This document shows, piece by piece, positions 5,462-51,266 of a stretch of 64,000 nucleotides of DNA (the first letter of the stretch is position 1; every line of letters starts with the position of its first letter). The position numbers and the translations under genes were made by a program. The notes below the pieces were generated by a model that was not told the DNA's origin, ran no database searches, and worked only from the letters and a program-made list of their open reading frames with translations. Origin of the DNA: Candidatus Omnitrophota bacterium (GTDB lineage: Bacteria; Omnitrophota; Gorgyraeia; Gygaellales; Profunditerraquicolaceae); the NCBI GenBank assembly GCA_028712255.1, contig JAQTQJ010000001.1:12366-76365 (forward strand). The letters run 5' to 3'.

Positions 5462-5543
5462 GTGTCATTGCGAGTCCGCCGAAGGCGGACGAAGCAATCT
5501 AATAAAAGATTGCTTCGTCGCTGTCGCTCCTCGCAATGACACC
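5462..5543. repeat. interspersed nested-palindrome element, full copy (GTGTCATTGCGAG-TCCGCCgaagGCGGAC-GAAGCAATCT aataaa AGATTGCTTC-...-CTCGCAATGACAC)
   Basis: seen in sequence; same termini recur at 12 or more other loci in this window. Confidence 0.85.
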
Positions 5544-5562: not shown

Positions 5563-6045
5563 ATGAGTAAAATAAGCATAATTATGGGCAGCCAGTCGGA
5601 TCTGGAGACGGTGAATGAAACAATTAAGGTATTAAAAGAATTTAAAGTTGATTTTGAGGCTAAGATTTTATCCGCGCACAGGACGCCTAAAGAGGTGGCC
5701 CAATATGTAGAGGCAGCTCCTGATAAAGGAATAAAAGTTTTTATTGCTGCTGCCGGAATGTCTGCGGCTTTGGCCGGAGTGGTGGCTGCGCATACAATTT
5801 TACCGGTTATTGGTATACCTATTGAAACCAAAAATTTAAAAGGCCTGGATTCACTTTTATCAACCGTGCAGATGCCTCCGGGAATTCCGGTTGCCTGCAT
5901 GGCTATTGGTAAGAGCGGAGCAAAGAACGCGGCACTTTTCGCGTTAGAAATACTTGGCATAAGTGATACTAAAATCCAAGCCAAGCTTCTTAATTACAAA
6001 AAGCAGATGCGCCTTAAAATTAAGCAGACTAAAATCAAATTATGA
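5563..6045 (+). CDS. purE: N5-carboxyaminoimidazole ribonucleotide mutase
   Basis: SIIMGSQSDL...AHRTP...AAGMSAALAGVVAA motifs of PurE. Confidence 0.9.
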   Translation: MSKISIIMGSQSDLETVNETIKVLKEFKVDFEAKILSAHRTPKEVAQYVEAAPDKGIKVFIAAAGMSAALAGVVAAHTILPVIGIPIETKNLKGLDSLLSTVQMPPGIPVACMAIGKSGAKNAALFALEILGISDTKIQAKLLNYKKQMRLKIKQTKIKL

Positions 6046-7103
6046 GCCTGACAAAAGTTATAAAAATCAATCCTGTTTTACTTGATGAGGCGCATATTAA
6101 AGAGGCAGCTAAAGTTATAACTAGTGGCGGATTGGTGATTATCCCTACAGAGACTGTTTATGGAGTTGCTGCTAGCGCTTCAAACAATAATGCGCTGGAT
6201 AGGCTTTATGAAGTTAAGCAGCGGCCTAAGGATAAACCTTTTGCGTTACTAGTTGCGGATAATGAGATGGTAGAGGAGCTTGCCCGGGATATTCCCTTAG
6301 CCGCATATAAACTAATGCGTAAATTTTGGCCGGGGCCGTTGACAATTATATTAAATGCAGTTAAGGGAGGCAAGATTGGGTTACGTATGCCAGATAATCA
6401 GGTTGTTTTAGAGATTATTTATGAAGCCCAGGTTCCGCTGGCATGCCCTTCTGCAAATATCTCTGATCATTCTGCGCCGGTTGATTTTGCGCAGGCAATT
6501 AAAGATTTGGATGGCTTGGTGGATTTAGCCATCGATGCTGGCCAAACGAAATTAGGAGTAGAATCTACGGTAGTTGATTTAACCGTTGAGCCATTAAAGA
6601 TACTGCGAAGCGGTGCGATAAAAGATGACCAGATAATGGCAGCTGTGAAATCCAAAAAAATACTTTTTGTCTGTACCGGCAATTCCTGCCGCTCGGTAAT
6701 GGCCGAAGCGTATTTAAAAAAACTTTTAGCAAAACAGGGCAGGACTGATGTGGAGGTAAGTTCAGCCGGAATGATGGCGCTTGAGGGTATGGGTGCCAGT
6801 GAAGAAACACGTGAGGTACTGGCAAAAGATGGTATAGATGTCAGTGATCATCGCACCAAAAGAGTAACTAAGGAATTAGTTGATGGAGCGGATATTATTT
6901 TGGTGATGGAAAAAATACATGAAGAGAGGATTTTACAGCTTGCGCCAGAGGTTAAAAATAGGCTTTTTTTATTAAAGGAATTTGCTAGAATAAATGACAG
7001 TAACTTGAATATTGCCGACCCAATAGGAGGGTCTTTTGAGTTTTATCAGGAGATTTTCTATACCATTAAAGACGCTGTAGAAAGGATAAGTAAAATTATA
7101 TGA
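6042..7103 (+). CDS. L-threonylcarbamoyladenylate synthase (TsaC/YwlC, Sua5/YrdC domain) fused to a low-molecular-weight protein phosphatase (YwlE-like) domain
   Basis: N-terminal LVIIPTETVYGVAASA (YrdC/Sua5); C-terminal KILFVCTGNSCRSVMAEA (CX5R P-loop of LMW-PTP) and DPIGG. Confidence 0.75.
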   Translation: MSLTKVIKINPVLLDEAHIKEAAKVITSGGLVIIPTETVYGVAASASNNNALDRLYEVKQRPKDKPFALLVADNEMVEELARDIPLAAYKLMRKFWPGPLTIILNAVKGGKIGLRMPDNQVVLEIIYEAQVPLACPSANISDHSAPVDFAQAIKDLDGLVDLAIDAGQTKLGVESTVVDLTVEPLKILRSGAIKDDQIMAAVKSKKILFVCTGNSCRSVMAEAYLKKLLAKQGRTDVEVSSAGMMALEGMGASEETREVLAKDGIDVSDHRTKRVTKELVDGADIILVMEKIHEERILQLAPEVKNRLFLLKEFARINDSNLNIADPIGGSFEFYQEIFYTIKDAVERISKII

Positions 7104-9399: not shown

Positions 9400-9474
9400 G
9401 TGTCATTGCGAGCCCGAAGGGCGAAGCAATCTTTTAAAGGATTGCTTCGTCGCTGTCGCTCCTCGCAATGACAC
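9400..9474. repeat. nested-palindrome element, full copy (loop ttttaaagg)
   Basis: gtgtcattgcgagcccgaagggcgaagcaatcttttaaaggattgcttcgtcgctgtcgctcctcgcaatgacac. Confidence 0.85.
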
Positions 9475-9977: not shown

Positions 9978-10040
9978 AGTGTCATTGCGAGGAGTCCGAC
10001 AACGTTTCAGTGGCGGACGACGAAGCAATCTAATAAAGTC
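9978..10040. repeat. nested-palindrome element, left half only
   Basis: gtgtcattgcgaggagtccgacaacgtttcagtggcggacgacgaagcaatctaataaa. Confidence 0.8.
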
Positions 10041-12768: not shown

Positions 12769-12832
12769 TCGTCATTCTGAGGGAGTCCGCCAACGTTCTG
12801 TGGCGGACGACGAAGCAATCTTTTTGGAACAT
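12769..12832. repeat. nested-palindrome element, left-half variant (GTCATTCTGAGG...GACGAAGCAATCT)
   Basis: cgtcgtcattctgagggagtccgccaacgttctgtggcggacgacgaagcaatct. Confidence 0.75.
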
Positions 12833-17610: not shown

Positions 17611-17753
17611 AGATTGCTTCGTCGTCCGCCACAGGGCGTTGGCGGACTCCTCGCAATGACACAGGAGGATGGCGGACTTAGAATGACGGAAGAACAGGTG
17701 GCTCAGAATGACGGGGGGATGTATACATAATCAGTTGTGAGCTTAGAATGACT
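17611..17753. repeat. nested-palindrome element right half followed by degenerate tandem GAATGAC units
   Basis: agattgcttcgtcgtccgccacagggcgttggcggactcctcgcaatgacac ... ttagaatgacgg ... ctcagaatgacgg ... cttagaatgactg. Confidence 0.75.
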
Positions 17754-18678: not shown

Positions 18679-18706
18679 TAGCGGATTCAGAATGACTGAA
18701 GATATA
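18679..18706. repeat. fragment of nested-palindrome element (TTCAGAATGACTGAAG)
   Basis: seen in sequence. Confidence 0.5.
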
Positions 18707-20782: not shown

Positions 20783-20879
20783 AAGATTGCTTCATCGCTT
20801 CGCTCCTCGCAATGACACCGGCTACTTTTCGCAAGGACACGGCTACCTCGTAATGACACAGTTACTTTGTAATGACACG
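20783..20879. repeat. nested-palindrome element right half plus three degenerate AATGACAC units
   Basis: aagattgcttcatcgcttcgctcctcgcaatgacac ... cgcaaggacac ... cgtaatgacac ... gtaatgacac. Confidence 0.75.
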
Positions 20880-21307: not shown

Positions 21308-21343
21308 TAAATGGAACCGCTCTCTTTGCCATACCTGATAAAT

Positions 21344-21404
21344 AAAGGGGACAGTTCTATTTTTGGTTGAAAGAAAAATGAGAAAAACAGAACCGTCCCC
21401 TTTA
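21344..21404 (+). terminator. long hairpin AAAGGGGACAGTTCTATTTTT ... AAAAACAGAACCGTCCCCTTT (GGGGACGG hairpin family)
   Basis: seen in sequence between BFN gene and cca. Confidence 0.7.
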
Positions 21405-21409
21405 TTTCT

Positions 21410-25730: not shown

Positions 25731-25817
25731 AGTCATTCTGAGGAGTGCGCCGTAGGCGCGCGACGAAGAATCTAAAAAGAGATCCTTCGTCCGCCTGAAG
25801 CGGACTCAGGATGACGG
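25731..25817. repeat. nested-palindrome element, full copy, TCATTCTGAGG / CTCAGGATGAC variant
   Basis: agtcattctgaggagtgcgccgtaggcgcgcgacgaagaatctaaaaagagatccttcgtccgcctgaagcggactcaggatgacgg. Confidence 0.8.
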
Positions 25818-25833
25818 AAATTTAAGGGTAATT

Positions 25834-26826
25834 ATGAAAATAAAAAATACAGAAATTAAGGTAGTAATGAGTGATATTACTGAAATAAAGGCTGATGCTA
25901 TTGTTAATGCCGCTAATAATGAATTGGTGATGGGAGGGGGAGTTGCCGGGGCAATTAGGCGCAAGGGTGGTAAAATTATCGAAGATGAGGCAGTAAAAAA
26001 AGGCCCGATTAAAATTGGAGAGGCAGTTGCTACCGGCGCAGGAAAATTGCCAGCAAAATATGTAATTCACGCTGCTACGATGGGGATAGGTTTTTCCCGC
26101 CAATCAAATAAATCATCAGGCGGGATCCCGCCTGAGCTTTGTAAGAGCTGGGCGGGAAAGACGGATGAGATTAAAATTCGTGATGCTTGTAGGAGCTCAT
26201 TAAACTTGGTTAGTGAATTAAAGATTGGTTCAATTGTTTTTCCGGCTTTAGGTTGTGGTACAGGAGGATTTCCATTGCTTGCTTCAGCTAAAATTATGGC
26301 TCAGGAGGTTTTAAAGCACCTGCGTCAGCAGGAGTCGCCCCTTAAAGAAGTAATTTTTTGTCTGAATAATCAGGAGGCTGTTACTATTTTTAATAAAGGC
26401 GTATTGGGCTATCTGGAATATGTAACGACTAAATTGTCCGGTGGGCCTTATGTTACCGTGGATGCGATTATTGAATTACCCGAAGGAATTGTAATTATTC
26501 AGCGTAGTAATCCGCCTTTTGGCTGGGCGCTGCCAGGAGGTTTTGTAGATTACGGCGAGAGCTTAGAAGATGCGGTAATAAGAGAGGCAAAAGAAGAGAC
26601 TAATCTTGATTTGACCGAGGTTAAACAGTTTCATACCTATTCTGCTCCTAACCGTGACCCCAGATTCCATACAGCCGGAACAGTATTTATTGCCAAAGCT
26701 AAAGGAATCCCTAGAGCCGGAGATGATGCCGCAGGCTTAAAAGTTATTAAATTAAATGAAATAGAGAAGATGCAATTTGCTTTTGACCATAAAAAGATTC
26801 TTCAGGATTATCTAAATTCAAAATAA
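25834..26826 (+). CDS. Macro domain (MacroD/YmdB-type) fused to NUDIX hydrolase
   Basis: N-term [23 protein letters not shown] macro signature; C-term Nudix box [24 protein letters not shown]. Confidence 0.75.
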
Positions 26827-26827
26827 A

Positions 26828-26890
26828 AGGGACCGTTTCTGTTTTTCTACCTTTTAAGTTTAGAAAAACAGAAACGGTCCCTTTTATTTT
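26828..26890. terminator. bidirectional terminator: perfect 25-bp hairpin AAAAGGGACCGTTTCTGTTTTTCTA / TAGAAAAACAGAAACGGTCCCTTTT
   Basis: seen in sequence between convergent genes, flanked by T-runs on both strands. Confidence 0.85.
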
Positions 26891-31094: not shown

Positions 31095-31352
31095 ATGGAA
31101 GAGAACGCAATCAGCGTCAGCCGCATATACAAGCTGGATACCGATTCCAAGCTTAAAGCTTTTGCGGATGTAACATTTTCGGGAGTTGTGATCAAAGGTT
31201 TTAGTGTGGTAAACGGCGAAAAAGGGTTATTTGTGAGTATGCCGCGCCATCAAGGCAAAGATGGGAAATGGTATAACACAGTTTATCCTTCGACCAAAGA
31301 ACTAAAGCAACAGTTAAGTGAAGTTGTCCTGGAAGCGTATAAAGGCAGCTAA
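31095..31352 (+). CDS. spoVG: SpoVG family protein
   Basis: 85 aa; VSRIYKLDTDSKLKAFADVTF...GLFVSMP matches SpoVG. Confidence 0.75.
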   Translation: MEENAISVSRIYKLDTDSKLKAFADVTFSGVVIKGFSVVNGEKGLFVSMPRHQGKDGKWYNTVYPSTKELKQQLSEVVLEAYKGS

Positions 31353-31356
31353 AATT

Positions 31357-31410
31357 AGGGGACGGTTCTATTTTTCTAGAACTGTACCGAGAAAAATAGA
31401 ACCGTCCCCT
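31357..31410 (+). terminator. perfect 21-bp hairpin AGGGGACGGTTCTATTTTTCT / AGAAAAATAGAACCGTCCCCT
   Basis: seen in sequence after spoVG. Confidence 0.8.
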
Positions 31411-31420
31411 AGATTTAAAA

Positions 31421-31957: not shown

Positions 31958-32050
31958 GCGTCATTCTGAGCCCGAAGGGCGAAGAATCTAAAAAAGCGAG
32001 ATCCTTCCCCTTCGCTCCGCTCAGGGTCAGGATGACAGGAATGAGGGCTT
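31958..32050. repeat. nested-palindrome element, full copy, GTCATTCTGAG / CAGGATGAC variant plus AGGATGA tail
   Basis: gcgtcattctgagcccgaagggcgaagaatctaaaaaagcgagatccttccccttcgctccgctcagggtcaggatgacagg. Confidence 0.8.
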
Positions 32051-32053
32051 AGG

Positions 32054-33157
32054 ATGATAGAAAAAATGACTGAACTGGAAGCATTTGTTGGATTAAATTT
32101 AATTTCTAATATTGGCAGCGTAAGGCTGAGTAAATTATTGGAAGTTTTTGGCAAACCGCAAGAAATATTTAGCGCAAAGTATGAACATTTGGCTTCTATC
32201 TCTGGGATAGGAGGCCAAATTGCCTCTGACATTGTTGCTTTTAAAAAAGAGAATATAGAAAAAGAGCTTTCTTTTGCCAATAAGCGCGGGATTAAAATTC
32301 TTACCTTAAACGATGATAGTTATCCGAAGAATTTAAGGCAGATTCCTGGAGTGCCAATTGTACTTTATGTTTTGGGTAACATAACTGAGCAGGATGATTT
32401 GGCTTTTGGCATTGTTGGCTCACGCAGCGCTTCATTTTATGGTTTAAGTAGTGCAGGAAAATTTGCTGCTGAATTATCCGCTTACGGGATAACCATAGTT
32501 TCGGGGATGGCCCGCGGTGTGGATACCTACGCACATCGTGGAGCGCTGAAAGTGAAAGGGCGCACCATTGCGGTGATGGGTAGTGGTTTTAACAATATTT
32601 ATCCTGCAGAGAACGCGGATTTAGCCAAAGAAATCAGTTTATCCGGAGCAGTAATCTCTGAATTTTCTATGGAAACAAAACCATTGGCGCAGAATTTTCC
32701 CCGCCGTAACCGGCTCATCAGCGGGTTAAGTTGCGGCGTTTTAATTACTGAGGCAGCCAGAAATAGTGGGGCATTAATTACCGCAGATTTTGCTTTGGAA
32801 CAAGGCAGGGAAGTTTTTGCTTTACCGGGTAGGATTGATTCAGCCGGTTCAATTGGGGCAAATGAGTTGCTTAAGCAAGGAGCAAGATTGGTTACTTGTT
32901 GTGATGATATTCTTGAGGAATTAAATTTAGTTACTGTTAGTAAAAAAGAAGCGGTTTTGCCGCAAGAGAATCAAAAGGTTGCATGTACCGATGATGAAAA
33001 CATGCTTTATGAATGTATAAGCCGGCAACCTGTGGCAATAGATGATTTAGTGGAGAAGACCTCTTTATCTAGTAGCAAGATTTTAAGTTTAATTTTAAAA
33101 TTACAATTTAAAAAATTAATCAAAGAGTTGCCGGGCAAACAATTTATGAGGAATTAA
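32054..33157 (+). CDS. dprA: DNA-processing protein DprA (Smf)
   Basis: GIVGSRSAS...GMARGVDT...LPGRIDS Rossmann-like DprA core, N-terminal SAM-like domain. Confidence 0.85.
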   Translation: MIEKMTELEAFVGLNLISNIGSVRLSKLLEVFGKPQEIFSAKYEHLASISGIGGQIASDIVAFKKENIEKELSFANKRGIKILTLNDDSYPKNLRQIPGVPIVLYVLGNITEQDDLAFGIVGSRSASFYGLSSAGKFAAELSAYGITIVSGMARGVDTYAHRGALKVKGRTIAVMGSGFNNIYPAENADLAKEISLSGAVISEFSMETKPLAQNFPRRNRLISGLSCGVLITEAARNSGALITADFALEQGREVFALPGRIDSAGSIGANELLKQGARLVTCCDDILEELNLVTVSKKEAVLPQENQKVACTDDENMLYECISRQPVAIDDLVEKTSLSSSKILSLILKLQFKKLIKELPGKQFMRN

Positions 33158-35157
33158 TGAGCAAAAATCTGGTCATTGTTGAGTCACCGACTAAAGCAAA
33201 AACTATAGGTAAGATTCTGGGAAGTAATTATACCGTGGTTTCTTCGATGGGGCATATTATCGACTTGCCTGCTAAAAAACTGGGCGTAGATGTAGAAAAT
33301 AAATTTGAACCGGAATATGTGGTTATTCCTGCCAAGAAAAAATTATTAACACAATTAAGAAAAGAAGCAAAGACAAAAGAAAAAATATACATTGCTACCG
33401 ACCCCGACCGGGAAGGCGAGGCAATCGGCTGGCAGATAAAAGAGAAGGTATTTAAGGGCAAGGATGTTTTACGCGTAAGTTTCCATGAGATTACTCCCGG
33501 CGCAGTTGCCCAGGCTTTTAAAAATGCGCGCGATTTTAATATTAAGATGATTGAAGCTCAGGTTGGCCGTCGGGTGCTCGACCGGCTTGTCGGGTATTTT
33601 TTAAGCCCTTTACTGTGGAAAAAGCTTGCTCGTGGTTTAAGCGCAGGTAGGGTGCAATCCGTGGGGCTAAGATTAATTGTGGAAAGGGAGCGGTTGATTC
33701 AAAAGTTTGTCGCCAGTGAATATTGGGAGATTGTTGCGGAATTATTCAAGCCTAAAATTTCCGGCCAGAGTAATTTTTCTGCCAAGCTTGAAAAAGTTGA
33801 CGGAAAAAAAGCAGAGATTAAAAATGATAAAGATGCTCAAGCTATTTGCGAACAGTTAAAGGATAAAGAATTTAAAGTTTTAGAGATTAAGAAAACAGAA
33901 AAAAAGCGTTATCCTGCGGCGCCTTTTATCACCAGCACGATGCAGCAGGAGGCGTTTAATAAACTACGATTTAATGCTTCAAAGACTATGTTGGTGGCTC
34001 AGCAGCTTTATGAAGGTATTGACATCGGCGAAGATAATCCAGTAGGCTTAATTACTTATATGCGTACGGATTCTCCGAATGTTGCTAGTGTTGCAATTAT
34101 TGAGGCGCGCGAACATATCGGTAGGATTTTTGGCAAAGATTTTTTACCAAAGGAGCCAAATGTTTTTAAGGCTAAGAAATCCGCTCAGGAAGCGCATGAG
34201 GCGATTCGTCCAAGCTATGTTTCCCGTTCACCGGAAAGCCTAAAAAGTTTTCTTAATCATGATCAGATACGCCTTTATGAGCTTATCTATAATCGTTTCC
34301 TGGCCAGTCAGATGAAACCGGCAGAGTTTTTGGCGACTTCTGTGGATATTATTGCGGATAAATATTTATTTGTTGCTAACGGCAGCCACTTATTGTTTGA
34401 AGGATTCCTGGCGGCTTACAACAAGATTGAGGATGAAGATAAGGAAGAGGAGGAGGAAAAAGAAAAGGCTAAAAATGTAATTCCTCCGCTTGAAGAGGGT
34501 GAAATTTTAGGGTTAGAGAAACTTACTCCTTCGCAGCATTTTACTAAACCGCCGCCGAGGTATTCAGATAGCTCTTTAATCAAGGCGCTTGAAGAGGAGG
34601 GCATCGGCCGGCCTTCGACATATGCGCCGATTATCTATACGATTATTATGCGCGATTATGTGCGCCGGATAAAAGGTTATCTTAATCCTACGGAGCTGGG
34701 GTTTAAGGTGTGTGATATGTTGGTGGAATATTTTCCTAAAATTCTTGATTTTAAGTTTACTGCGCTCATGGAAGAGAAGCTGGATGAGATTGAAGAAGGC
34801 ACACTTAACCGTTTAAAAGTTTTGGAAGATTTTTACGTGCCTTTTAAAGAGAGCTTGGATTTTGCCCAGGCAAATATTGTCAAGGAAGTTATAACTACTG
34901 ATCAAGTTTGCGATAAATGCGGTAAGCCTCTAATAGTAAAATGGGGTAGGCGCGGTAAATTTTTAAGTTGCTCTGGTTTTCCGGAGTGTAAGAATTCTAA
35001 GTCTATTACCTCAGGGGTTAAGTGTCCTGCAGAAAATTGCGGAGGTGAACTTATTGAGCGCCACTCCCGGCGGGGGGTTTTCTACGGCTGCTCCAATTTC
35101 CCCAAGTGTACCTTTACCTCGCGTACTTTACCAGAGGATAAAGAGGGGGATAGTTAA
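33157..35157 (+). CDS. topA: DNA topoisomerase I with C-terminal zinc ribbons
   Basis: LVIVESPTKAKTI Toprim start, active-site tyrosine region, C4 zinc-ribbon repeats. Confidence 0.95.
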   Translation: MSKNLVIVESPTKAKTIGKILGSNYTVVSSMGHIIDLPAKKLGVDVENKFEPEYVVIPAKKKLLTQLRKEAKTKEKIYIATDPDREGEAIGWQIKEKVFKGKDVLRVSFHEITPGAVAQAFKNARDFNIKMIEAQVGRRVLDRLVGYFLSPLLWKKLARGLSAGRVQSVGLRLIVERERLIQKFVASEYWEIVAELFKPKISGQSNFSAKLEKVDGKKAEIKNDKDAQAICEQLKDKEFKVLEIKKTEKKRYPAAPFITSTMQQEAFNKLRFNASKTMLVAQQLYEGIDIGEDNPVGLITYMRTDSPNVASVAIIEAREHIGRIFGKDFLPKEPNVFKAKKSAQEAHEAIRPSYVSRSPESLKSFLNHDQIRLYELIYNRFLASQMKPAEFLATSVDIIADKYLFVANGSHLLFEGFLAAYNKIEDEDKEEEEEKEKAKNVIPPLEEGEILGLEKLTPSQHFTKPPPRYSDSSLIKALEEEGIGRPSTYAPIIYTIIMRDYVRRIKGYLNPTELGFKVCDMLVEYFPKILDFKFTALMEEKLDEIEEGTLNRLKVLEDFYVPFKESLDFAQANIVKEVITTDQVCDKCGKPLIVKWGRRGKFLSCSGFPECKNSKSITSGVKCPAENCGGELIERHSRRGVFYGCSNFPKCTFTSRTLPEDKEGDS

Positions 35158-35168
35158 TTTTTTCTTAG

Positions 35169-35551
35169 GTGTCATTGCGAGGATGCGCCGTAGGCGCAGA
35201 CGAAGCAATCTTTTAAAGGATGCTAACCAAGCAGTACTACGTTTATTTTTTAACGAATTGGGATCATAAAGTTATCTATGTTGGCGTAACAGACGATTTA
35301 AAGCGCAGGATTTATGAGCATAAGAATGGATTAATTGATGGATTCACATGGAAATATCATGTGCATAAATTGGTCCATTATGAGATATGCGAAGAGATCC
35401 AGGGAGCTATTTTAAGAGAAAAACAAATCAAGGGCGGTTCTCGGCAGAAGAAAGTTGGACTGATTAACAAATTTAATCCTGAGTGGGATGATTTGTGGAG
35501 TAAGTTATAAAAAGATTGCTTCGTCCGCCTTCGGCGGACTCGCAATGACAC
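35169..35551 (+). mobile_element. composite element: nested-palindrome left half (35169-35219) + GIY-YIG nuclease gene (35220-35510) + right half (35511-35551)
   Basis: gene occupies exactly the loop position of the 80-bp repeat; start ATG is fused to the TTTTAAAGG loop and stop TAA abuts AAAGATTGCTTCG. Confidence 0.65.
35220..35510 (+). CDS. small GIY-YIG nuclease (UPF0213/YhbQ-like)
   Basis: YYVYFL...IYVGVTDDLKRRIYEH GIY-(10)-YVG motif, 96 aa. Confidence 0.75.
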   Translation: MLTKQYYVYFLTNWDHKVIYVGVTDDLKRRIYEHKNGLIDGFTWKYHVHKLVHYEICEEIQGAILREKQIKGGSRQKKVGLINKFNPEWDDLWSKL

Positions 35552-35609: not shown

Positions 35610-35662
35610 GAGATCCTTCAGCTTCGCCTCAGGATGACAGGAATTTGACTCAGAATGACGGG
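35610..35662. repeat. fragments of nested-palindrome element (right-half variant + CTCAGAATGACGG)
   Basis: gagatccttcagcttcgcctcaggatgacagg ... ctcagaatgacggg. Confidence 0.6.
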
Positions 35663-38420: not shown

Positions 38421-38503
38421 GTGTCATTGCGAGGAGCGATAGCGACGAAGCAATCTAAAAAAAGATTGCTTCCCCTTCGCTTCGCTCAGGGTCGCAATGA
38501 CAC
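38421..38503. repeat. nested-palindrome element, full copy
   Basis: gtgtcattgcgaggagcgatagcgacgaagcaatctaaaaaaagattgcttccccttcgcttcgctcagggtcgcaatgacac. Confidence 0.85.
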
Positions 38504-47743: not shown

Positions 47744-48777
47744 ATAAAAAGCATTCTGAAAAACGTATCCTAATTTTTAATGTTAATTGGCTTGGAGATG
47801 TTTTGTTTTCCAGTGCCGCGATCAGGAATATTCGCAGGAACTATCCGCAAGCCTACCTTGCCTGTATAATCCCCAGCCGTTGTTATCAGATACTAAAAGA
47901 TAATCCTTATTTAGATGAGGTAATCATTTTTGATGAGAGGGATAGGCATAAAGGGGTGATTTCTAAGCTTAGTTTTATTAGCCTGCTTAAAAGCAAAAAA
48001 TTTGATACTGTATTTTTATTGCATCGATCATTTACGCGCGCCCTTATTTGCCGGCTTGCCGGAATTCCTGAGAGGATTGGGCATTATACGAAGAAGCGTT
48101 CTTTTCTTCTGACTAAAAAAATCATTCCACCCAAAAGAGATTCACTGCACCGCATAGATTATTATCTGGATGTGATTGAAAAAGCGGGCCTGCGGATTGA
48201 AGACAGATACCTGGATTTCTTCTTTACATCTTTAGATGAGGAGTATGTTGAGAATTTTTTAAATAAAAATTCTATTGGTAAAAGTGATTTTTTAGTAGCA
48301 ATAAACCCCGGAGGCAACTGGCTGCCTAAGCGCTGGCCCGTCGATTATTGGGCGCAGCTAGCCGATAAATTAATCAATGAATTGGGTTTAAGAGTAATAA
48401 TCACCGGTAGCGCTGCTGATTCAAAGTTAGCACTTCAAATTAAAGAAAGAATGAAGGAACTCCCATTAATTGTTTGTGGGGCTTTCAATATCAAGCAGCT
48501 CGGCGTACTGGCAAAAAGGGCAGATTTGTTCATTACTGCCGATACTGGTCCAATGCATATTGCCAATGCCGTAGGGTGCAAAAATATAATTGCAATTTTT
48601 GGGCCAACATCCAAAGAAGTTACTGGGCCGTATCCTGCTAATAATGTCGTTATACTGCAAAAGGATGCAGGTTGTCCTATACCGTGTTATAAGCTAAATT
48701 GTCAGGACAGGCGTTGTATGAAGGCGGTCACTCCCAGTGATGTTTTGGCAGAAGTTAAGAAAATAAGAAAGCTATGA
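47740..48777 (+). CDS. glycosyltransferase family 9 (ADP-heptose:LPS heptosyltransferase-like)
   Basis: RILIFNVNWLGDVLFSSAAIRNI and GPMHIANAVG motifs. Confidence 0.75.
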   Translation: MNKKHSEKRILIFNVNWLGDVLFSSAAIRNIRRNYPQAYLACIIPSRCYQILKDNPYLDEVIIFDERDRHKGVISKLSFISLLKSKKFDTVFLLHRSFTRALICRLAGIPERIGHYTKKRSFLLTKKIIPPKRDSLHRIDYYLDVIEKAGLRIEDRYLDFFFTSLDEEYVENFLNKNSIGKSDFLVAINPGGNWLPKRWPVDYWAQLADKLINELGLRVIITGSAADSKLALQIKERMKELPLIVCGAFNIKQLGVLAKRADLFITADTGPMHIANAVGCKNIIAIFGPTSKEVTGPYPANNVVILQKDAGCPIPCYKLNCQDRRCMKAVTPSDVLAEVKKIRKL

Positions 48778-50861
48778 AAATACTTTTTATAACTTTAAGT
48801 AATATTGGAGATTGTGTTTTGACCCTGCCGGTTTTAGACGCCTTGCGCCAGGAGTATCCGCAGTCTAGGATTACCTGCCTTGTACCTGAGCGCCCTAAAG
48901 AGATCTTTATTAATAATCCTGTAATTGAGAATGTTGTTATTTTTGATAAACATGCCAAATTAATCGATAAGATTAAGTTATTTATTTCTTTAAGCAAGGA
49001 GAAATTTGATTTAGTTATCGATATGCGTAATAGTTTTTTTGGAGTTTTTCTACCTGCTAAAAAAAAGAGTACGCCTTTACGTATAATTCCTTCTAGGATT
49101 AAACATATGAAGGACAGGCATCTTTTTTGGGCGGGTTTTACCGATTATTCTTATAAGAATAAAGATTACCAATCATTGGTTATTACTCCTGGAGATTTTG
49201 ATTATGTCGATAATATCTTTAATGGGCAGGGACTAGCTAAAAGTGAAAAATTGATTGTAGTTGCGCCTGGTTCTAGAAGCCAGGTTAAATGCTGGGATAA
49301 GCATAATTTTAGCCAACTTTGTAACCAGCTTAAAAAAGAGGGCAAGGATATAGTTTTAGTTGGAGACAAAGGCGATCAATCTATATGTTCATATGTGCAA
49401 CAAAATTCTTCTCCTGGAATTTTTAACCTTTGTGCAAGGACAACGCTAGGGCAACTTGGCGCTTTGTTAAAAAAATCCCAGCTTTTAATTACCAATGATA
49501 GCGCAGTGATGCATTTGGCAAGTTATTTGAATGTTCCTGTTGCTGCTATCTTTGGGCCGACGGATGAAAAGAAATATGGGCCTTGGTCGCAGAAGAGCAT
49601 AGTTATAAAGAAGGATATCTTCTGTCGTCCCTGTGAAAAAGCGCAATGCCATTTTGGTACACTGGCTTGTTTGAGTTGTATAAAGCCGCTAGATGTGTTA
49701 AAGCAGATTAAATCCTTATTGTGTCATTGCGAGGAGTCCGCCATTGGTTCAGTGGCGGACGACGCCTGCCCGCCAACGGTTCAGTGGCGGGAAGCAATCT
49801 TTGCAACTAAAAGATTAAAGGAAAAAAGTAAACAATACCGCAGGATTCTTATTGCACGCACTGATCGTATCGGGGACGTGCTTTTATCTACGCCGGTAAT
49901 CTATGCTTTGAGGAAAAAATTTCCACAGGCATATATTTCTATGATGGTTGCCCCTTATGCTTTGGATATTATAGAAGGTAACCCTTATCTGGATGAGGTT
50001 ATTATTTATGATAAAGACCAAAAACATAAGAGTTGGTGGCGTTCTTTTAAATTTTCTAATAGGCTTAAGAAGAAAAAATTTGATTTGGCAATTATTTTAC
50101 ATCCGACAAACCGGCTACATTTAATAACTTTTTTAGCCGGAATTCCGCATCGACTGGGTTATGATTGTAAACTTGGTTTTTTGCTTAATCTGCGCAAAAT
50201 TCATACAAAGCAGGAGGGTTTGCGGCATGAGGCAGAATATAATTTGGATTTAATTTCTGAATTAGGTATAGCCGGTAATCCAGAAGATTTATTTATGCCC
50301 ATTAAAAAGGAATCAGAGCAATATGTCGAGGAGCTGTTTAGAAAAGAAGGTATTAGTAAGACAGATAAAATATTAGCGATTAATCCTGGAGCAAGCTGCC
50401 CTTCAAAGATTTGGCCACATGAGCGTTTTGCGCAAGTTGCCGAAAAGCTATCTAAACGATATGATTTTAAAATTCTGATTCTAGCCGGGCCAAAAGAAAT
50501 GTATTTAGCAGATAAGATTGCCCATGAAATTAAAGATAAGGTGGTAAATCTGGCAGGGAGGACTTCAATAAGCCAGTTAGCCAGCATCCTTAAAAGGTGC
50601 ACCCTATTTATTTCTAATGATTCCGGTCCGGTGCATATCGCTTGCGCCTTAGGCACGCCGGTTATCTCAATTTTTGGCCGTAATCAAGCAGGCCTTAGCC
50701 CGCGGCGCTGGGGGCCTTTGGGCAAACATGGGAAATATCTGCACAAGGATGTAGGCTGTATTCAGTGCCTGGCGCATAATTGTAAAAAAGAATTCACCTG
50801 CCTTAAGGCAATCAGCGTTGATGATGTAGTCTGTGCCGCTGAATCGATTTTAAATAGGTAG
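48774..50861 (+). CDS. tandem double GT9 heptosyltransferase-like protein with a nested-palindrome repeat copy in the linker
   Basis: two complete GT9 units (ILFITLSNIGDCVLTLP... and ILIARTDRIGDVLLSTP...) joined in frame across the repeat at 49720-49800. Confidence 0.6.
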   Translation: MKILFITLSNIGDCVLTLPVLDALRQEYPQSRITCLVPERPKEIFINNPVIENVVIFDKHAKLIDKIKLFISLSKEKFDLVIDMRNSFFGVFLPAKKKSTPLRIIPSRIKHMKDRHLFWAGFTDYSYKNKDYQSLVITPGDFDYVDNIFNGQGLAKSEKLIVVAPGSRSQVKCWDKHNFSQLCNQLKKEGKDIVLVGDKGDQSICSYVQQNSSPGIFNLCARTTLGQLGALLKKSQLLITNDSAVMHLASYLNVPVAAIFGPTDEKKYGPWSQKSIVIKKDIFCRPCEKAQCHFGTLACLSCIKPLDVLKQIKSLLCHCEESAIGSVADDACPPTVQWREAIFATKRLKEKSKQYRRILIARTDRIGDVLLSTPVIYALRKKFPQAYISMMVAPYALDIIEGNPYLDEVIIYDKDQKHKSWWRSFKFSNRLKKKKFDLAIILHPTNRLHLITFLAGIPHRLGYDCKLGFLLNLRKIHTKQEGLRHEAEYNLDLISELGIAGNPEDLFMPIKKESEQYVEELFRKEGISKTDKILAINPGASCPSKIWPHERFAQVAEKLSKRYDFKILILAGPKEMYLADKIAHEIKDKVVNLAGRTSISQLASILKRCTLFISNDSGPVHIACALGTPVISIFGRNQAGLSPRRWGPLGKHGKYLHKDVGCIQCLAHNCKKEFTCLKAISVDDVVCAAESILNR
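49720..49800. repeat. nested-palindrome element, left half with duplicated GC hairpin, inside CDS
   Basis: gtgtcattgcgaggagtccgccattggttcagtggcggacgacgcctgcccgccaacggttcagtggcgggaagcaatct. Confidence 0.8.
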
Positions 50862-51245: not shown

Positions 51246-51266
51246 AAGGGGACGGTTCTATTTTTA
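51246..51266. repeat. solo half-copy of GGGGACGG hairpin family (AGGGGACGGTTCTATTTTT without partner arm)
   Basis: 19/19 identical to left arm of hairpin at 31357. Confidence 0.6.

Follow-up and report, generated by a model that had tools for sequence, protein, structure and literature searches.

An Ssn-family nuclease gene flanked by inverted hairpin units in an Omnitrophota genome, and the dispersed repeats that are probably its cognate motifs

The DNA analysed here, referred to as the window, is a 64-kb stretch from an uncultured Omnitrophota bacterium, and at positions 35169-35551 it holds a small nuclease gene, which we call ssn, enclosed by two inverted hairpin repeats of a kind that is scattered over the rest of the window. 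Gene and repeats are considered in relation to the Ssn nucleases and their repeat motifs (SRM), the best characterized of which is the NTS hairpin of Neisseria (Chenal et al. 2025, Nat Commun 16:2388; PMC11893778). A single hairpin of the family is called a half-unit, an inverted pair is called a doublet, and outer stems of different sequence are called dialects. The module and the unit that stands 3' of it are made up as follows:

35169-35211, plus strand: left arm, GTGTCATTGCGAGG-ATGCGCCGTAGGCGCAGAC-GAAGCAATCT, an SRM-like hairpin unit
35212-35219, plus strand: spacer TTTAAAGG, 8 nt, from the left arm to the ATG, identical to the loop of the 9400-9474 doublet
35220-35510, plus strand: ssn, coding for a 96-aa GIY-YIG nuclease, a homologue of Neisseria SsnA
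35513-35551, minus strand: right arm, AGATTGCTTCG-TCCGCCTTCGGCGGA-CTCGCAATGACAC, of the short class, inner hairpin GTCCGCC-GAA-GGCGGAC
35610-35641, minus strand: solo unit of the ATCCT/AGGAT dialect, 3' of the module, followed by a 13-nt end fragment CTCAGAATGACGG at 35649-35661

A preliminary description of this DNA had reported a complete 96-aa GIY-YIG open reading frame (ORF) between two halves of a repeat, and our analysis confirms that arrangement, as well as three details given with it: the sequence adjacent to the ATG is the same as the loop of the 9400 copy, the stop codon is directly followed by AAAGATTGCTTCG, and the inner hairpin of the left arm, GCGCCGTAGGCGC, is shared with the left half of the doublet at 25732. 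No other ORF was found inside the unit-ssn-unit module. The left arm is laid out as a GTG-GTC frame, the outer stem ATTGC/GCAAT, putative GA-containing internal loops and the inner hairpin GCGCC-GTA-GGCGC, then C-T, while the right arm starts 2 nt past the ssn stop and, read in reverse complement, matches the left half of the 5462 doublet exactly. Folded as single-stranded DNA (ssDNA), the left arm reaches -8.9 kcal/mol (z=-2.2) and the right arm -11.2 kcal/mol (z=-3.5), within an overall range for the module arms of -8.4 to -11.2 kcal/mol and z -2.2 to -3.5. An identical junction between arm and gene, TCTTTTAAAGGATG, is present at a homologous locus (L001).

The ssn product is a single-domain protein, with Pfam PF01541 covering residues 5-77 (E=1e-13) and no further domain found, and tblastn showed the gene to be the sole copy of its kind within the window. 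Ssn proteins have been described as single-domain GIY-YIG nucleases of about 94 aa, classified as CDD cd10448, GIY-YIG_unchar_3 (PMC11893778). Pfam and NCBIfam models do not resolve this subfamily. For the comparison with SsnA the N. gonorrhoeae orthologue was used in place of the N. meningitidis protein, and the window protein is 45% identical to it over 89 aa (E=3e-25, pairwise BLASTP). A tblastn search of the N. gonorrhoeae chromosome with the ssn protein gave one match (44.9% identity, E=1e-15 in a 7.3-Gb database, the published threshold for an SsnA homologue being a tblastn E<1e-10), and this is a 94-aa ORF that lies amid 16 NTS copies in 3.3 kb. The chromosome was taken from a PLSDB record of 2.17 Mb labelled as a plasmid (L171); the PLSDB entries NZ_CP119140.1 and NZ_CP119142.1 (L171), both labelled N. 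gonorrhoeae plasmids and 2.17 Mb each, are evidently whole chromosomes. The catalytic residues Y6/Y17/E64 of N. meningitidis SsnA align with Y9/Y20/E67 of the window protein, which are invariant across 30 homologues. With a dN/dS of 0.05-0.15, ssn is under strong purifying selection. Its product is 100% identical to an NCBI protein encoded on a 212-kb contig of a 'Candidatus Omnitrophica' metagenome-assembled genome.

Two other affiliations were considered for the protein. It had been labelled UPF0213/YhbQ-like in the preliminary description, and members of that group (BH0048, PDB 1zg2) are likewise stand-alone GIY-YIG domains of ~100 aa, but the label is not the best description because the ssn family profile matches BH0048 only at E=4.5e-5, far weaker than the match to SsnA, and the two probably belong to different subfamilies. 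GIY-YIG homing endonucleases such as I-TevI and T4 Seg share the catalytic domain and an association with selfish gene spread, but their catalytic domain is joined by a linker and a DNA-binding domain, their substrate is duplex DNA, and they are sited in introns or between phage genes, whereas the window protein is a bare catalytic domain that ends at residue 96. An I-TevI-type homing enzyme was ruled out since TIGR01453 scored 17.2 bits against a cut-off of 56, over residues 8-36 only.

The repeats have a modular anatomy. Each half-unit is a hairpin that begins with GTC and proceeds through a 5-bp stem (P1, ATTGC...GCAAT), an internal loop and an inner hairpin (P2), with a C after the stem. 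In the internal loop, of which a unit may have one or two, GA stands opposite GA (tandem G.A) with one additional A, and P2 is GC-rich and free in sequence and length (7 to >50 nt), GC-GAA-GC being its commonest form. The modal unit has 26 nt (GTC-ATTGC-GA-GCGAAGC-GAA-GCAAT-C), and a long unit of 32 nt has the GAG/CGA module once more. Among 310 distinct units, for whose detection the inner part alone was used, G, T and C stand at positions -3, -2 and -1 in 98%, 99% and 98%, position +1 is C in 98%, positions -4 and +2 are T or C in 90% and 89%, and beyond -4 and +3 no conservation was seen; the unit is therefore directional and sharply bounded. When detection was blind to P1, all five pairs were Watson-Crick in 73 of 102 units, and none of 27 reversed-sequence controls reached even four of five. 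Six complementary P1 types were observed (ATTGC, ATTCT, ATCCT, ACTGC, GTTGC/GCAAC and ACCCT), and these compensatory changes support the pairing of P1. The mismatches in P1 show a slight excess of G:T (~24) over A:C (9) on the plus strand.

A hammerhead or other ribozyme, suggested by the order GTC..CTGAG..GAA, was rejected as an identity for the unit: the putative CUGA core shows the covariation of a stem (ATTGC, ATTCT, ATCCT), short units have no GA after N7, and Rfam gave no match. With Rfam 15, no family reached the gathering threshold anywhere in the window.

Published work on N. meningitidis SsnA gives these positions a possible meaning. SsnA binds the NTS hairpin CGTCATTCCCGCGMAVGCGGGAATCYRG only as ssDNA and only on one strand, and cuts a few nucleotides upstream of it; binding depends critically on the C that directly follows the palindrome, and cutting on the three bases in front of the palindrome; neither RNA nor duplex DNA serves as a substrate, RNA is not bound, and a change of the stem sequence abolishes activity (PMC11893778). 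The frame of the window unit is the frame of NTS, CGTCATTCCC..GGGAATCY, that is, the positions found critical in the SsnA work. The two systems further agree in a 94-96-aa single-domain GIY-YIG protein (45% identical, with the catalytic Tyr/Tyr/Glu kept), in a gene flanked by mostly intergenic hairpin repeats with GTC plus stem on one side and stem plus C(Y) on the other, and in the occurrence of doublets, clusters and clipped end fragments beside full units. They differ in the stem, ATTGC/GCAAT (also ATTCT and ATCCT) in the window and ATTCCCGC in NTS, and in the tandem G.A loops and free inner hairpin of 7 to >50 nt of the window units. In addition, the order [+]gene[-] predominates among homologues of the window ssn whereas N. 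gonorrhoeae has [-]gene[+], and the window member, from an uncultured Omnitrophota host, is known from sequence alone.

The association of the gene with the unit extends far beyond this locus. A scan of species-representative genomes gave at least 586 loci with ssn homologues, of which 80 were kept (52-77% identity), and the phyla include Omnitrophota, Patescibacteria, Chloroflexota, Nitrospirota, Cyanobacteria, Elusimicrobiota, Desulfobacterota, Ignavibacteria, Pseudomonadota, Planctomycetota, Spirochaetota, Atribacterota, Bacillota and others, more than 15 in all. A unit lies within 120 nt of the gene in 80 of 81 loci and on both sides in 68 of 81, against a background density of 0.46 units per kb; in the published survey SRM were found near 71% of Ssn homologues and on both sides in 42% (PMC11893778). 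Taking the nearest unit within 120 nt on each side, the upstream and downstream orientations are (+,-) in 42 genes, (+,+) in 13, (-,+) in 7 and (-,-) in 6, with units on one side only in 12 and on neither side in 1. Of 87 loci examined, 85 have a flanking unit, and in 76 of these the stem seen most often in the flanks is ATTGC. Loci with other stems are few; one of them, L040, has ATTCT arms, and its protein stands at 61% identity to that of the window and likewise to that of L092. The juxtaposition noticed in the preliminary description is thus no accident of one locus, the same arms being found in >15 phyla and the site being empty in relatives.

These comparisons argue that 35169-35551 is an Ssn/SRM module, with a protein of the Ssn family and with dispersed units that would be its cognate SRMs, and we give this reading a probability of roughly 85%. 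Several observations weigh against it. The published SRM pattern, HGTCWYN(0-2)YYVSBRHN(0-5)WNVSBRGN(0-2)RNCYNB, which was built from 29 genomes of 4 phyla (PMC11893778), matches 9 times in the N. gonorrhoeae locus of 3.3 kb and 0 times in the 64 kb of the window, because neither the ATTGC stem nor long inner hairpins are accommodated by it; under this working definition the window units do not count as SRMs. The window has three stem dialects (ATTGC, ATTCT, ATCCT) and one ssn, though a stem change abolishes the activity of N. meningitidis SsnA, and its arms are oriented opposite to those of the N. gonorrhoeae locus. Finally, neither target-site duplications nor recent identical copies turned up, nor did any clean presence/absence polymorphism within the one population followed (P0070).

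The repeat population of the window is large. The 14-mer GTGTCATTGCGAGG, allowing up to 2 mismatches, occurs 13 times where 0.2 are expected, and 0 of 100 shuffles reach 13. The census gave 18 half-units at 13 loci, namely 5 doublets, 1 gene-bearing pair and 6 solo half-units, with at least 8 short terminal fragments besides. Units are nearly all intergenic, and doublets mostly consist of one long and one short arm. As ssDNA the doublets fold at about -23 to -32 kcal/mol with z from -5.2 to -9.6. Besides the module and the solo unit next to it, the following copies were recorded, doublets being given without strand:

5462-5542: doublet, ATTGC dialect; short arm, 6-nt loop, long arm; -31.9 kcal/mol as ssDNA, z=-9.6
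9400-9474: doublet, ATTGC dialect, loop TTTAAAGG; -28.7 kcal/mol, z=-8.6
25732-25817: doublet, left half ATTCT/AGAAT, right half ATCCT/AGGAT; -23 kcal/mol, z=-5.2
31960-32039: doublet of variant dialects between aroK and dprA, with an end fragment then at 32048-32060
38421-38503: doublet, ATTGC dialect; -29.3 kcal/mol, z=-7.8
9979-10031, plus strand: solo half-unit of the long class, weak fold (z=-1.25)
12771-12821, plus strand: solo hybrid unit, 5' half ATTCT, 3' half GCAAT, P1 not complementary
17611-17662, minus strand: solo half-unit (z=-2.6), with end fragments then at 17677-17689 and 17702-17714
18686-18698, minus strand: isolated 13-nt end fragment TTCAGAATGACTG
20784-20878, minus strand: half-unit at 20784-20818, then three stacked end fragments, ..CGCAAGGACAC, CCTCGTAATGACAC and TTTGTAATGACAC
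49721-49800, plus strand: half-unit with two inner hairpins, in frame within ORF 48774-50861

The five full copies listed in the preliminary description are all present as doublets, but two of them, at 25732-25817 and 31960-32039, have the stems GTCATTCTGAG..GAAGAATCT and GAGATCCTTC..CTCAGGATGAC, which are not of the ATTGC type. Its half or fragment copies were likewise found in part: there are solo half-units, but the copy given at 18679 is only the 13-nt fragment, the copy at 12771 is a non-complementary hybrid of the ATTCT and ATTGC dialects, probably a recombinant or a dead copy, and the copy at 49721 lies within an ORF. That ORF (695 aa) contains two separate Glyco_transf_9 (heptosyltransferase) stretches, with the repeat translated as ..CHCEESAIGSVADDACPPTVQWREAI.., and the unit seems to fuse two tandem genes into one reading frame. 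To call the repeat dominant in this genome is arguable, given a second, unrelated palindrome family, AAAGGGGAC(N)GTTCT..AGAAC(N)GTCCCCTTT, with arms of 25-30 nt, which occurs in the window at 21340-21407, 26820-26890, 31350-31417 and 51248-51259 (GGGGACNGTTCT, 5 times against 0.4 expected).

Clipped unit ends such as CTCGTAATGACAC, 12-20 nt in length, stand stacked beyond full units at a distance of 8-45 nt and share their orientation. In the window this is seen at 20829-20878, 17677-17714, 32048-32060 and 35649-35661, and elsewhere in L014 (5845-5945), L036, L038 and the N. gonorrhoeae ssnA flank (L171, about 1364-1420). With 1 mismatch allowed there are 72 cases against ~28 expected, the expectation being a naive one since units cluster in intergenic DNA. 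Such stacked fragments may have been left behind where DNA was cut and repaired 5' of GTC.

The ssn gene belongs to the string aroK-dprA-topA-ssn-xerC-waaA-greA, directly 3' of dprA (DNA_processg_A, E=2e-76; 32054-33157) and topA (33157-35157) and 5' of xerC. It is probably co-transcribed with dprA and xerC, since no promoter-like site of its own was found in the aroK-dprA-topA-ssn-xerC string. DprA handles incoming ssDNA in transformation, a process that SsnA modulates in Neisseria, and this neighbourhood may be a coincidence.

The history of the topA-xerC site was followed in 80 metagenomic loci in which XerC is 74-91% identical and the topA-xerC order is kept. From the topA stop to the xerC start there are 512 nt in the window, compared with -3 to ~50 nt in about 25 relatives, and these empty sites include L091 (TopA 89%, XerC 91% identical), L126, L129, L133 and L135. 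Two relatives, L174 and L175, have ssn (85% and 82% identical) at the same site, whereas L092/L093 (XerC 91%) have a different ssn there, only 53% identical and with ATTCT arms, and L172 has an 81%-identical ssn at another locus, beside trx and pta-ackA. Downstream of ssn L174 also has a variant-dialect unit, an orthologous unit of the ATTCT type at the place of the 35610-35641 unit. The evidence for insertion at topA-xerC is circumstantial, and it is new relative to PMC11893778. The dS of topA/xerC is ~1.0-1.4, i.e. saturated, and the insertion therefore cannot be dated. In the P0070 population the same ssn context is present in 10 contigs/samples.

Comparison of 35169-35551 with the apparently orthologous modules at L174 3935-4320 and L175 95-520 (ssn 82-85% identical) showed that P1 and the GTC/C frame are unchanged and that the inner hairpins of both arms are wholly different sequences; the inner hairpin is either swapped wholesale or very fast-evolving. 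In L081-L090, which represent one Omnitrophota population, the region 3' of ssn varies from 137 to >400 nt through tandem 140-nt blocks, each made of one unit and two copies of another repeat (..GAAGTCGAAGCAAGTGAGGCTCAAGCCTTTTGACAC), and the differences could be real copy-number variation or an assembly artefact. The second palindrome family fills the topA-xerC gap in L100, L136, L138, L139, L144, L151 and L163. A further repeat of ~300-450 nt, TGATCTTTGATATTTTGTTCTTCGGGATATTGTTCGCGTGCGAAAATTTTC...GACAGGACCCGCTAAAACAGGATAG, sometimes inverted, occupies the junction in L104, L106, L112, L114, L115, L119, L124, L125, L131, L143, L148, L154 and L155. The topA-xerC junction is a hot spot for several kinds of insert.

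Homologous modules in other genomes also show related copies within one genome. In one Gastranaerophilales metagenome-assembled genome there are two paralogues, L008 and L022, whose homology starts where the left arm begins on its outer side and runs through the gene at 79% identity; past the gene they have the right-arm motif alone in common. A Parcubacteria contig (L059) has two 96%-identical composite modules, 2099-2680 and 5842-6363, 3.7 kb apart, each with the order unit, unit, unit, ssn, unit, and one of them enlarged by a further 59-nt unit that has the direct repeat CTCGCAA(T/G)GACA at its borders. In the window itself, an in-silico deletion from GGAT|GCTAACC to AAAGAT|TGCTTCG in the gene copy gives the exact centre of the 9400 doublet, and the endpoints are AAGAT/AGGAT microhomologies. 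The 9400 doublet thus looks like a candidate ORF-less derivative of a gene-bearing unit.

By analogy with SsnA, a working model can be outlined. The GTC-reading strand of a unit (GTC-ATTGC-GA..GA(A)-GCAAT-C) would fold as a hairpin when single-stranded, for instance at forks, in transformation or conjugation, or in R-loops. The ssn protein would bind this hairpin, with the C after the stem needed for binding and the preceding GTC for cutting, and would hydrolyse the single strand a few nucleotides 5' of GTC while sparing duplex DNA, RNA and the opposite strand. Cleavage is predicted on the top strand for the left arm and on the bottom strand for the right arm, and from this [+]gene[-] strand geometry nicks would be expected just outside both arms, on opposite strands. 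Gene and arms probably entered an ancestrally tight topA-xerC junction together. Some units look like ORF-less derivatives of the module, and doublets may, more speculatively, arise through loss of the ORF. The route by which units spread is a matter of speculation; nicks may promote the copying of the module and of doublets by host repair. A host role in restricting or shaping incoming or replicative ssDNA, comparable to that in Neisseria transformation, is also possible.

There is a behavioural parallel with REP/BIME repeats, REPINs and their RAYT (TnpA_REP) proteins, where one conserved nuclease gene per genome lies within inverted short hairpin repeats, many solo and inverted-pair copies are intergenic, the gene has a long vertical residence, and a short conserved motif stands 5' of the hairpin foot (GTAG in REP, GTC here). 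The locus may behave in this way, with one conserved nuclease gene and a population of solo and paired hairpins. The enzymes have no sequence relationship: the window protein is a hydrolytic GIY-YIG enzyme and not an HUH Y1 transposase, and therefore would have no covalent intermediate and no strand-transfer chemistry of its own. The REP/RAYT systems are reportedly treated by Nunvar 2010, Bertels & Rainey 2011 and Ton-Hoang 2012. Elements of the IS200/IS605 type (IS608, ISDra2) are similar in that a small gene is bounded by subterminal hairpins recognised as ssDNA with strand-specific action; they differ in enzyme class and in having both end hairpins on one strand, from which a Y1 transposase excises circular ssDNA, whereas the arms are inverted here, and no specific tetra- or pentanucleotide target was found here. 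Both parallels were drawn for NTS-ssnA-NTS, which has been likened to an insertion sequence (PMC11893778). A classical MITE (miniature inverted-repeat transposable element) of a DDE insertion sequence was rejected, as the borders of the four ATTGC-type copies have no direct repeats and the supposed parent is a 96-aa hydrolytic nuclease.

The alternative that comes nearest to holding is an active selfish transposon, in which a strand is released or marked through Ssn nicks at both outer ends and then copied elsewhere by host replication or repair, and doublets are MITE- or REPIN-like copies mobilised in trans, all of which would amount to a new mechanistic class. It overlaps the Ssn/SRM reading and differs from it solely in assuming present-day autonomous mobility, and we regard it as less likely than not. 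It would account for the empty sites, for one site occupied independently by two divergent ssn, for the 81%-identical ssn at another locus, for the two nearly identical modules of the Parcubacteria contig and for homology in L008/L022 that begins at the outer end of the left arm, as well as for a 9400 doublet that equals the module minus its ORF. The same arms recur in >15 phyla at 53-65% protein identity, and the ssn at the same locus of a close relative is only 53% identical, which suggests horizontal transfer; moreover, most of the >2,200 homologues of the ssn protein are on short contigs, as repeats are. On the other hand, GIY-YIG enzymes hydrolyse DNA and are unable to rejoin it, there is one ssn in 64 kb, and neither a target-site duplication nor a target motif was found; the preliminary description had proposed to look for such duplications at copy borders, and no direct repeat was seen at the four ATTGC-type copies, that is, the 5462, 9400 and 38421 doublets and the ssn module. 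The gene has been kept at the same site in relatives at a dS of 0.5-0.9 and under purifying selection, its context in P0070 is the same in all 10 samples, and no promoter-like site belonging to it was found. Phages are essentially devoid of the family, whose matches in the plasmid collection are nearly all large non-mobilizable replicons or mislabelled chromosomes.

A long-resident, RAYT-like gene fits these data at least as well as an active transposon. The earlier proposal that short copies are deletion derivatives of a selfish element is supported for the 9400 doublet as an ORF-less derivative, but its selfish part is unproven because no target-site duplication, recent transposition or clean presence/absence polymorphism was found and ssn is long resident. 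In its fullest form, mobility would mean that unit-ssn-unit is an autonomous mobile element of a mechanistic class undemonstrated so far, with doublets as its non-autonomous progeny; a hydrolytic GIY-YIG enzyme would nick outside the inverted ends and host replication or repair would do the copying, the ATTGC dialect would have spread horizontally through >15 phyla including bacteria of the candidate phyla radiation (CPR) and Omnitrophota, and the stacked clipped heads would be footprints of cut-and-copy. We consider this full version unlikely.

A domesticated host function, on balance doubtful, would make ssn a resident gene that uses the hairpins as landmarks for ssDNA cutting in transformation, conjugation, replication or repair, with units that are kept or tolerated and no longer mobile. 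There is an experimental precedent in Neisseria, where N. meningitidis SsnA reduces transformation by NTS-bearing DNA (PMC11893778), and strong purifying selection, long residence at one locus in three diverged relatives, the almost exclusively intergenic position of the units and the place of ssn in a gene string where transcription is probably shared with dprA and xerC, genes for transformation and recombination, all agree with such a role. However, ssn is missing from the topA-xerC site in most close relatives and is therefore dispensable, different ssn lineages replace one another at the same site, and the multiplication of units is left unexplained.

Homing of the gene into a pre-existing repeat is improbable. 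Ssn would cut ORF-less doublets and the gene would be copied in by recombination over arms of ~40 nt, the repeats themselves spreading by another route. The gene does occupy precisely the loop position of a structure shaped like a doublet, the 5' spacer of ssn recurs as the loop of the 9400 doublet, and the right-arm inner hairpin matches the 5462 left half and the left-arm one matches 25732, as expected under gene conversion of arms. By homology, though, the cut would fall outside the unit, 5' of GTC, and not in the loop, and SsnA leaves duplex DNA uncut; 40-nt arms offer little length for RecA-dependent homing, only one of the 6 doublet-like sites in the window is filled, and many homologue loci are arranged (+,+), (-,+) or (-,-).

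We give very little credence to an element acting at the RNA level, in which the nuclease gene would be a mere neighbour and the units would work in transcripts as a terminator, stabiliser, ribozyme or small RNA; that the units are intergenic GC-rich hairpins and show the slight G:T excess in P1 would suit it, but no Rfam family reaches threshold in the window, no T-run was found after the hairpins, units point either way with respect to genes, the supposed hammerhead core shows stem covariation, and SsnA does not bind RNA (PMC11893778). Chance bracketing of a housekeeping yhbQ-like gene by a common repeat, which the preliminary description had kept as an alternative should gene copies without arms exist and which the single gene-bearing copy in the window might suggest, is refuted by the 80 of 81 homologue loci with a unit within 120 nt at 0.46 units per kb, and runs equally against the absence of the gene from the orthologous site in most relatives and the published genome-wide association (PMC11893778).

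The link between an unexplained nuclease family and a repeat, put forward as new in the preliminary description, had already been published together with biochemistry in March 2025 (PMC11893778), so that the gene-repeat claim is without discovery value. What the Ssn/SRM module of the window adds is a modular hairpin anatomy with compensatory stem changes, and a dialect, GTC-ATTGC-GA..GA-GCAAT-C, that is very widespread and is missed by the published pattern; surveys that use that pattern will therefore undercount Ssn-repeat pairs, especially outside Pseudomonadota. The gain and replacement of ssn at a tight junction bears on whether these genes are mobile elements or domesticated tools, a question left open by PMC11893778. 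As Ssn enzymes are under development as site-specific ssDNA cutters, a catalogue of natural enzyme-hairpin pairs would also be practically useful.

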